Positions 49,554-51,302 are shown, counted from the first letter of the stretch. The stretch is DNA of 64,000 nucleotides from Candidatus Kaiserbacteria bacterium (GCA_963767115.1 CAVYCR010000007.1:21863-85862), one strand, 5' to 3'. The notes: generated from the letters alone by a model not told the origin. Translations and numbers: made by a program.

Positions 49554-50600
49554 ATGTCCGAACAAACCAAAATAAATCCCGAAGAATACCTCGACGACAA
49601 TCGCGTCTCGTATCTCGCGCACGAATGGAAGCGCCTCACGCAGGCGGAGAACGATGCGCAGGAGCTGATCGAAGTCGACCCAGCGATGGCAGAGCTCGCA
49701 GAGAAGGAGATTGAGGATATCGACGTACAGAAAGAACGCTCCTGTCAGAGATGGAGCGCATCATTGGCGCGAGTGCTCAGGAGCGCGAATGGCCCAACGA
49801 GATCGTTCTCGAAGTGCGCGCGGGCGTCGGCGGCGACGAGGCATCGCTTTTTGCAGAAGAGCTCGCGCGGATGTACCTACAATACGCTGAGACGCAGGGC
49901 TGGCGCTCCAAGTCGCTCGACGAATCGCGCGCGTCCTTAGGCGGCTACAAGGAAGCGCAATTCGAGATCAAGGGCGAAGATTGCTATCGCAAGCTGCGCT
50001 ACGAGACCGGCGTGCATCGCGTGCAGCGCGTGCCCGCGACCGAAAAGGCGGGCCGCATCCACACCTCGACCGCATCTGTCGCGATCTTGCCGATCTACAA
50101 GCGCACCAAAATGGAAATCAATCCCGGCGACATCGAGATCGAAATCTCGCGCTCCGGCGGCGCGGGCGGCCAAAACGTCAACAAGGTCGAAACGGCGGTA
50201 CGCATCATCCACAAGCCGACCGGTATCGACGTGCGTGTCACCTCCGAGCGCAGTCAGGCCGCAGAATAGAGAGAAGGCGATGACGCTCCTCATTTCGCGC
50301 CTCCAGCAGATGAAGGATGAGGCGAAGACCGCGAGCGCGCCGCTGACCGCAAGTCGCAGATAGGCACCGGCGACCGCTCCGAGAAGATCCGCACCTACAA
50401 TTTCCCGCAAGACCGCATCACCGACCACCGCATCAAGGAGTCCTGGTCCAACATCGAGAAGATAATGGCCGGCGCGCATCGAGCCGATCCTCGAAGCGCT
50501 CGCAAAGGCCGATACGGAAGGTATCACGGGGAAGCTGTTGCGGAAAGCGACTGATTTTGCTAGTATCTCAGGCCTCAGAATCAGGACCTCTATATTCTGA
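49554..50600 (+). pseudogene. prfA: Peptide chain release factor 1, interrupted by four single-base indels
   Basis: RF1 homology is spread over two alternating frames:
- 49554-49739: MSEQTKINPEEYLDDNRV...[11 protein letters not shown]
- up to 50260: [12 protein letters not shown]...[25 protein letters not shown]...[35 protein letters not shown]
- 50262 to ~50333: [24 protein letters not shown]
- up to 50476: [34 protein letters not shown]...KIMAGA
- 50478-50600: [15 protein letters not shown]...
The PAT tripeptide marks RF1, not RF2. Confidence 0.85.
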
Positions 50601-50601
50601 T

Positions 50602-51302
50602 ATGACAGATACAACGATTGAACCTTTTCGAAGCCGGCGCGCATTTCGGCTATGCCCGCGCGCGCCGCCACCCGACCGCCGCTCCGTTACCTCTTCGGCA
50701 CCAAGGACCGCACCGATATTTTCGACCTCGAAGAGACCACGAAGCGCCTCGACGCGGCAGCCGCTTTCGCATCATCGGTCGCCTCGAGCCGGCAAGCAAC
50801 TCCTCTTCGTCGGCGGCAAGCACGAGGCGATCGCCCTCGTGAAGCGCTGCCGAGCGCGTCGGCCAGCCGTATGTCGCTGGTCGCTGGATCGGCGGTACGC
50901 TCACCAATTTCAAGAACATCCGCAAGCGCATCGACCTCCTCGAGAAGCTCATGGGCGAGCGCGAGCGCGGCGAGCTCGAGAAATACACCAAGAAAGAGCG
51001 CCTCCTGATCGACCGCCAGATCGATGAGCTGCTCGCCCGCTTCGGCGGTCTCGTCACGATGACACGAACTGCCTGCCGCGCTGTTCGTCGTCGATTCGCG
51101 TCACGAAGACACTGCGGTAAAGGAGGCCAATCAGCTCGGCATCCCGGTCATCGGCCTCTCAAGCTCTGACTGTGATTTCTCGCTTGTCCAGTACCCGATC
51201 CCGGCAAACGACACATCAGTGCGCTCGATCAGCCTCGTGAGTAATGCAATTGCCGAGGCGTACCAGAGTGGTAAGACGACTGCCAAGCCTTCATCCAAAT
51301 AG
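50602..51302 (+). pseudogene. rpsB: 30S ribosomal protein S2, interrupted by five single-base insertions
   Basis: S2 homology steps through the frames 1->2->0->1->2->0:
- MTDTTI, then extra g at 50620
- NLFEAGAHFGYARARRHPTAAP, then extra t at 50687
- YLFGTKDRTDIFDLEETTKRLDAAAAFASSVASS, then extra c at 50790
- GKQLLFVGGKHEAIALVKR, then extra t at 50848
- AERVGQPYVAGRWIGGTLTNFKNIRKRIDLLEKL...LVTMT, then extra c at 51065
- ELPAALFVVDSRHEDTAVKEANQLGIPVIGLSSSDCDFSLVQYPIPANDTSVRSI... to the stop codon. Confidence 0.85.

Follow-up and report, generated by a model that had tools for sequence, protein, structure and literature searches.

We analysed a stretch of 64,000 nucleotides (hereafter, the window) from Candidatus Kaiserbacteria bacterium (GCA_963767115.1, CAVYCR010000007.1:21863-85862; G000:C7:21863-85862 in our numbering), which is part of an assembly, G000, of 1,026,153 bases in 12 contigs. 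In this window the genes prfA and rpsB, for release factor 1 (RF1) and ribosomal protein S2, are situated between an intact rpmE and an intact tsf, and neither of the two is present as one open frame. It is highly probable that the frame switches in prfA and rpsB are uncorrected insertion or deletion (indel) errors of the consensus sequence, concentrated in stretches of high G+C content (GC), and that they are not a biological feature. We regard them as an artefact because the same damage was observed throughout the assembly, including in the genes of RNA polymerase and in other indispensable genes. The breaks in the prfA frame are thus attributed to the assembly and not to the gene. The two genes are placed as follows.

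49554-50600, + strand: prfA (release factor 1), split over two frames; its real stop is probably the TGA at 50552-50554 and not that at 50598-50600.
50602-51302, + strand: rpsB (ribosomal protein S2), in which the frame steps by +1 four to five times.

The identity of both genes was established from model matches to their pieces. A 175-residue piece of the prfA product scored 239.2 bits with NF001859 (RF1) and 234.4 bits with TIGR00019 (prfA), as compared with 169.2 bits with the prfB model; the intact prfA orthologue of the relative G011 scored 385.5 bits on the RF1 model, just below the curated value of 400. The Pfam RF-1 domain matched prfA in two pieces. The translation of 49742-50266 carries both the GGQ and the PAT motifs, whose retention had been stated in an earlier note made from the sequence of the window, and which we take to be the hydrolysis motif (GGQ) and the stop-codon recognition motif (P-x-T) of RF1. 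The rpsB gene matched TIGR01011 with two pieces of 67.9 and 72.1 bits that cover profile positions 81-153 and 155-223 (231.5 bits for an intact rpsB orthologue), and Pfam S2 covered profile positions 74-216. A frameshift-aware alignment of rpsB spanned residues 4-262 of the 264-residue frame of a relative.

We placed the switches by three-frame translation and by frameshift-aware protein-to-DNA alignment against intact orthologues of the same genus, using four alignments for RF1 and five for S2. A faster re-implementation of the alignment gave all the firm RF1 and S2 switches again. All switches are on the + strand.

49734-49740, + strand: prfA switch 1, -1 (base missing), in four of four alignments.
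50261, + strand: prfA switch 2, +1 (extra base), in four of four alignments.
50322-50333, + strand: prfA switch 3, -1, in four of four alignments.
50474-50477, + strand: prfA switch 4, +1, in four of four alignments.
50528-50531, + strand: possible fifth prfA event, -1 in a run of four G, which would give a tail of normal length to the TGA at 50552-50554.
50618-50623, + strand: rpsB switch 1, +1, likely but not firm, in one of five alignments and suggested by the N-terminal spacing in eight relatives.
50684-50689, + strand: rpsB switch 2, +1, in five of five alignments.
50787-50790, + strand: rpsB switch 3, +1, in four of five alignments; the fifth took two -1 steps, at 50775 and 50786.
50845-50851, + strand: rpsB switch 4, +1, in five of five alignments.
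51062-51065, + strand: rpsB switch 5, +1, in five of five alignments.

Therefore, the frame of prfA is interrupted by four firm switches (-1, +1, -1, +1) and one possible one, and that of rpsB by four firm +1 switches and one likely one. The indel storm that the earlier note had described in these two genes was recovered in this way, and its four RF1 events (at 49739/49740, 50261, about 50333 and 50477) were all reproduced. Of the five +1 steps proposed for S2, four are firm, while the first, near 50620, is likely because of the spacing between the start methionine and the LF[DE]AG motif. This spacing is 6-8 residues in the S2 proteins of eight relatives; the G000 protein reaches it only if the ATG at 50602 is joined to the next frame, as the alternative start, TTG at 50618, leaves one residue. 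We also obtained an additional +1 step at 51276 of rpsB in two of the five alignments, which was rejected as alignment noise, the terminal segment being weak (score 17).

The end of prfA needs a separate comment. The earlier note had read a prfA stop codon abutting the rpsB start as tgatATG. This string does exist (TGA at 50598-50600 and ATG at 50602-50604), but the abutment is probably a reading in the wrong frame. It is doubtful because the RF1 tail past the SWSN motif would be 52 residues up to this TGA, as against 26-43 residues in 58 relatives. With a -1 event in the G run at 50528-50531 and the stop at 50552-50554, the tail would be 37 residues. One alignment (L008) placed a -1 at 50526-7 in this tail, and a vote by tail similarity was weak, with 25, 21 and 12 of the 58 relatives for the three frames. 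From these sequence comparisons, the prfA tail possibly contains a tenth event.

Next, we measured how far the same kind of damage extends over the assembly. As comparison genomes we used all 781,526 bases of G008 and, from G011, its largest contig, G011:C1 (376,200 bases). Proteins from open reading frames (ORFs) of at least 120 residues in the relatives were aligned to G000 where the best hit had an identity of 45% or more, and events were accepted only when the segments on both sides had a score of at least 30. The same scans between the two relatives served as controls.

G008 onto G000: 69 of 301 genes frameshifted, 271 events, 8.7 per 10 kb.
G011:C1 onto G000: 25 of 133 genes frameshifted, 106 events, 7.5 per 10 kb.
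G011:C1 onto G008 (control): 3 of 147 genes frameshifted, 4 events, 0.25 per 10 kb.
G008 onto G011:C1 (control): 9 of 132 genes frameshifted, 10 events, 0.71 per 10 kb.

A cruder test on high-scoring segment pairs from tblastn gave the same picture, with 42 of 301 and 20 of 133 genes affected in G000 and 1 of 147 and 3 of 132 in the controls. A homology-free hidden Markov model of the six frames found 295 same-strand switches in G000 that are located away from stop codons (2.87 per 10 kb); on 320 kb of sequence from G008 it found 25 (0.78 per 10 kb). When both homology scans onto G000 were merged, there were 275 distinct events on 10 of the 12 contigs, of which 225 were +1 (82%) and 50 were -1; on the two event-free contigs, just 4.2 and 5.8 kb had been aligned. 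Hence, the defect is assembly-wide and far above the level of comparable genomes. The earlier note had considered a local consensus-quality problem most likely; an artefact is where all the evidence points, whereas the word local did not stand. The marker completeness of G000, 71.5, is the lowest of 19 genomes of the same genus that were listed (77-100 for the others), although G000 is among the largest and least fragmented of these 19.

The merged scans hit many genes of the core machinery. Among the genes with at least three events were the following.

rpoC: 22-25 events.
rpoB: 14 events.
VirB4-like ATPase gene: 13 events.
clpB: 12 events.
pnp: 11 events.
gyrA, nrdA, fusA and pilB: 9 events each.
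dnaE and the RNase J gene: 8 events each.
typA: 7 events.
uvrA and smc: 5 events each.
recA, ftsK and nusA: 4 events each.
ftsZ, rpsA, relA/spoT, topA, nrdB and rplB: 3 events each.

Each of the 11 core genes that we checked had a single locus in the assembly, and a cell without any of these 11 is not viable. Indispensable single-copy genes are hit with neither a compensating copy nor another sign of decay. These observations bear directly on the reading of the indels as real, with prfA, rpsB and many further genes as recent pseudogenes of a decaying lineage. Gene loss does occur in small host-dependent bacteria, and no intact second copy was found in the 12 contigs; in having many frameshifted genes and no spare copies, G000 resembles the pseudogene accumulation of reductive or host-restricted bacterial genomes. 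However, indispensable genes are spared by true decay, which brings substitutions and in-frame stops and favours deletions. In G000 the genes of the core machinery are the most heavily affected, the level of substitutions is normal and most events are insertions, and the cell would have lost the β and β′ subunits of RNA polymerase, EF-G, DnaE, GyrA, FtsZ, L2, S2 and RF1 together. Moreover, spontaneous bacterial indels and pseudogene decay favour deletions; the 82% of insertions run opposite to this bias and therefore count for an artefact. The events also follow GC and not gene function, and the relatives examined are all intact. We thus consider decay of the lineage very unlikely.

The proteins themselves were informative in this respect. 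After frame correction, RF1 had a mean identity of 0.782 to its relatives, which have 0.772-0.807 among themselves, and S2 had 0.733, as compared with 0.666-0.731 among the relatives. Of the columns that are invariant in the relatives, RF1 kept 180 of 185 and S2 94 of 97 (0.94-0.99 in leave-one-out controls). An excess of substitutions, as expected of pseudogenes, was not observed, both measures being within the range of intact relatives, and in a three-frame read of prfA-rpsB we noticed no in-frame stop apart from the frame switches. The corrected proteins thus match those of intact relatives in conservation, and only the frame is wrong in RF1 and S2. This agrees with the claim of the earlier note that the reconstructed proteins are well conserved.

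We then looked for further copies and for the genes in other genomes. The earlier note had also offered a decaying copy with intact paralogues elsewhere and had proposed a search for second copies, which gave the result it anticipated: there was no second prfA or rpsB in the 12 contigs. One other release-factor locus only was found, on C5, and the model that it matches best is RF2. In relatives of the same genus, prfA was a single ORF in nine of nine loci and rpsB in the eight loci that reach it. In addition, 80 metagenome relatives were fetched with the longest RF1 piece and counted where at least 80% of RF1 or S2 was aligned; frameshifts were seen in 0 of 74 for RF1 and in 0 of 52 for S2. 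Comparison with the closest relatives, which the earlier note had proposed, thus gave unshifted prfA and rpsB in the relatives examined. At the RF2 locus (G000:C5:61135-62014; L001:1420-2298, - strand) we observed an ORF of 293 residues that matches the prfB model from profile position 113 with 350.6 bits, below the cut-off of 370. The N-terminal part of this RF2 must be encoded in a different frame, which could be due to the usual programmed +1 site of prfB or to an assembly error.

If the frame shifts were instead decoded by the cell, the extra bases would truly be in the DNA, and this bacterium of the Candidate Phyla Radiation (CPR) would restore hundreds of frames, mostly by +1 recoding or insertional editing and including that of its own RF1. 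Genome-scale programmed ribosomal frameshifting, quadruplet decoding or RNA editing by insertion or deletion would all lead to this outcome, and the +1 bias (225 of 275) and the conserved proteins after correction are also expected of a recoding system. Programmed +1 frameshifting is found in bacterial prfB and genome-wide in Euplotes, in a defined slippery or stop context that is conserved among relatives. G000 is similar to these systems in the dominance of +1 and in the involvement of a release-factor gene. Unlike in them, G000 has no motif, its relatives are unshifted, and it is prfA that is affected, by -1 and +1 steps in alternation. The sites share no sequence: no position exceeded 0.19 bit, and the only enriched k-mers were those containing stop codons, at 6% of the sites or fewer, and no shared context conserved in relatives was observed. 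None of the 44 tRNAs of G000 (48 in G008) had an expanded or odd anticodon loop. Furthermore, G008 and G011 have no excess of events (0.25-0.71 per 10 kb in the controls), site density tracks GC and not codon context, and 18% of the events go in the opposite direction. We therefore consider decoding on this scale, of extra bases that are truly in the DNA, extremely improbable.

The distribution of the events was far from uniform. Taking a storm as at least four events, 204 of the 275 events were in 25 storms that occupy 30.4 kb in all, one event per 149 nucleotides (nt), whereas there were 2.1 events per 10 kb outside the storms. The index of dispersion was 3.33, and 19 one-kb bins had at least five events, as against 0.43 expected. 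By the strict filter of the scan, the prfA-rpsB storm has eight events and is not the largest; the largest one cited here, in rpoC (C12:89293-92134), has 25 events in 2.8 kb, and rpoC and rpoB together occupy C12:88.9-95.8 kb.

GC was the property that best followed the events. Their number per 10 kb was 1.7 in genes with GC below 0.52, 0.6 at 0.52-0.55, 3.9 at 0.55-0.58, 13.5 at 0.58-0.61 and 36.8 at 0.61 or above. The homology-free frame model had the same trend, from 1.1 rising to 17.1. In a logistic fit, the standardised weights were 0.66 for GC, 0.64 for length and 0.06 for conservation. The interval of prfA and rpsB has a GC of 0.599, as compared with 0.539 for the window, and is in the top 0.9% of windows of its size. 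The GC-richness of this interval, which was a passing remark in the earlier note, is the main predictor of where the storms are. A local cause such as a foreign GC-rich insert was discarded, since prfA and rpsB match or exceed the GC of their surroundings in 11 of 12 comparisons in relatives. We also observed no association with homopolymers: within 5 nt, the longest run averaged 2.12 at the +1 events and 2.16 in the background, and slippage in homopolymers was rejected. The earlier remark that the sites in prfA and rpsB are outside long homopolymers holds for all nine of them.

These data also bear on a different origin of an artefact, namely that reads of co-occurring strains or sister species were merged in the consensus or during polishing, conserved genes having recruited foreign reads and bases of both sources having been retained in the consensus. 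The affected genes are slightly more conserved (score per residue 3.30 versus 3.07, p = 0.011). In addition, the conserved cores of prfA recruited contigs of a public run (X1) at 80-95% identity with a summed depth of up to 2865; therefore, communities with many relatives do exist. However, once GC and length were modelled, conservation carried a weight of only 0.06 against 0.66 for GC, the fragment of the 23S ribosomal RNA (rRNA), which is the most conserved sequence tested, was clean, and the frame-corrected proteins had no mosaic excess of substitutions. As conservation adds nothing beyond GC and length, and as the 23S fragment is clean, we regard the merging of strains or sister species as the less likely origin, with a low chance of being right.

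Thus, uncorrected consensus errors in GC-rich DNA are the explanation that we prefer. On this explanation, the deposited assembly keeps uncorrected single-base indels throughout, mostly one extra base. The errors arrive in bursts of 0.2-2.8 kb, with about one per 150 nt, and the frequency of the bursts climbs steeply once the local GC exceeds about 0.58. Few stretches of the window are as GC-rich as prfA-rpsB, which thereby drew one burst. As to the technical cause, we infer single-molecule read noise that may not have been voted out or polished where the correcting coverage failed in GC-rich DNA, because the errors are mostly insertions, are outside homopolymers, come without an excess of substitutions and occur in bursts tied to GC.

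Frameshifts caused by indels in long-read or under-polished genome and metagenome assemblies are the subject addressed by proovframe (bioRxiv 10.1101/2021.08.23.457338), ARAMIS (PMC8574707) and Kastor (PMC12007338). Like such assemblies, G000 has conserved genes broken assembly-wide by single-base indels, several per gene, its completeness is depressed, and its frames can be restored with the proteins of relatives. The raw PacBio error profile, as quoted by proovframe (10.1101/2021.08.23.457338), is about 8% insertions, 3% deletions and 2% substitutions, and the excess of insertions in G000 is similar to this quoted profile. Conversely, in its passages on PacBio consensus sequences, ARAMIS (PMC8574707) places more than 70% of the indels in homopolymers and reports deletions of G and C for GC-rich genomes; the errors of G000 are unlike the residue described there in being outside homopolymers, 82% insertions and in GC-rich stretches. 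The indels of nanopore sequences are tied to homopolymers by PMC9262707.

Several results weigh against our explanation or add nothing to it. In its exact technical part, the signature does not fit a well-covered PacBio consensus as described in PMC8574707, or the homopolymer indels of nanopore in PMC9262707. The dependence on GC is not deterministic, as the genes at 57529-59559 (GC 0.58) and 60804-61517 (GC 0.61) of the window are without an event. A protein search of metagenomes for a contig of the same species returned only relatives of at most 87% identity, and a species-specific 24-mer from the prfA-rpsB spacer had no match in metagenome contigs. Among public runs, one (X1) shares the words of the region, at 0.05 of those sampled, with short contigs that are mostly those of relatives, and there was no RNA run. 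At 80% likeness, X1 gave 1458 contig pieces, 146 of them at least 99% alike, and among the eight pieces listed none spans the region; gaps seen in X1 near 50689 and 50837/50840 may be sequence of relatives and were not counted as evidence. The 23S fragment (GC 0.50) has two 1-nt insertions unique to G000, as compared with 0-2 in four relatives, and gives no extra support. The same applies to the tRNAs: their gap runs, 26 of them extra and 18 missing over 2.5 kb, versus 7 and 7 over 1.0 kb of a control pair, are pairwise counts too noisy for use.

The flanks of the prfA-rpsB locus have the following features.

49168-49431, + strand: rpmE (ribosomal protein L31, type B), an intact single ORF; match to NCBIfam NF002462 with 123.4 bits (cut-off 86).
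49438-49523, no strand assigned: perfect inverted repeat of 26 nt with a 34-nt spacer, between rpmE and prfA and separate from the indel problem.
51359-51940, + strand: tsf (EF-Ts), intact; TIGR00116, 125.7 bits against a cut-off of 104, and without frameshift against the G011 orthologue.

Both flanking genes were thus found as intact as the earlier note had reported. Stretches of 30-32 nt of the inverted repeat recur on contigs C2, C5 and C12 at 97-100% identity. Just upstream of rpsB, one frame of 50535-50570 reads as a 12-residue peptide, and a near-identical one, LLRKTLDFASIS, is located upstream of rpsB in G008. The likeness of these peptides points to a putative conserved DNA element in the rpsB leader. 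A sigma-70-like promoter considered at 50537-50570 was dropped, as it was not called by the consensus scan, which gave only a weak terminator-like hairpin at 50537-50551 upstream of rpsB.

Elsewhere in the window, two single-base events that the earlier note had placed at 17441 and about 52675 were both recovered by the ab initio frame model.

17441, + strand: frame switch splitting a gene of about 29.7 kb into the ORFs 4367-17566 and 17001-34046, from the frame model and the overlap of the ORFs.
52667-52704, - strand: frame switch in a putative thioredoxin-like gene, with the ORFs 52667-53263 and 52504-52704 and the model switch at 52674/5.

If the switch at 17441 is undone, the giant ORFs of 4399 and 5681 residues become one gene of about 9,900 codons (4367-34046). 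With a GC of 0.551 and one event only, this gene fits the observation that the errors depend on GC. The frame model gave two more same-strand switches, at 38999 and 45800 (+ strand), which are 54 and 155 nt from a stop codon; on this model they are possibly further indel errors. At 55328 (+ strand), the alignment with the G008 orthologue gave a +1 where the gene 55158-57158 begins, whereas that with the G011 orthologue, which aligned from 55329, gave none. This is probably a difference in start site and not an indel.

The 23S match of the assembly is partial (G000:C2:7256-8640, 1385 nt for model positions 15-2044). In the 12 contigs there was no match to 16S rRNA, and tRNA-Ile was absent from the 44 tRNAs. 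The rRNA operon is probably incompletely assembled.

The above results are foremost a warning about data quality: of the conserved genes that we tested, 23% or more are fragmented in G000. Gene calls, protein sets and completeness estimates of G000 are unreliable, and so are gene loss, pseudogenes and split or overlapping genes inferred from it, especially at a GC of about 0.58 or above. The signature of the errors, which is biased to insertions, outside homopolymers, dependent on GC and bursty, may interest the builders of polishing tools, as it departs from the homopolymer-centred patterns in the literature compared. As for the organism, the living cell most likely has an intact prfA and an intact rpsB, like all the relatives examined.

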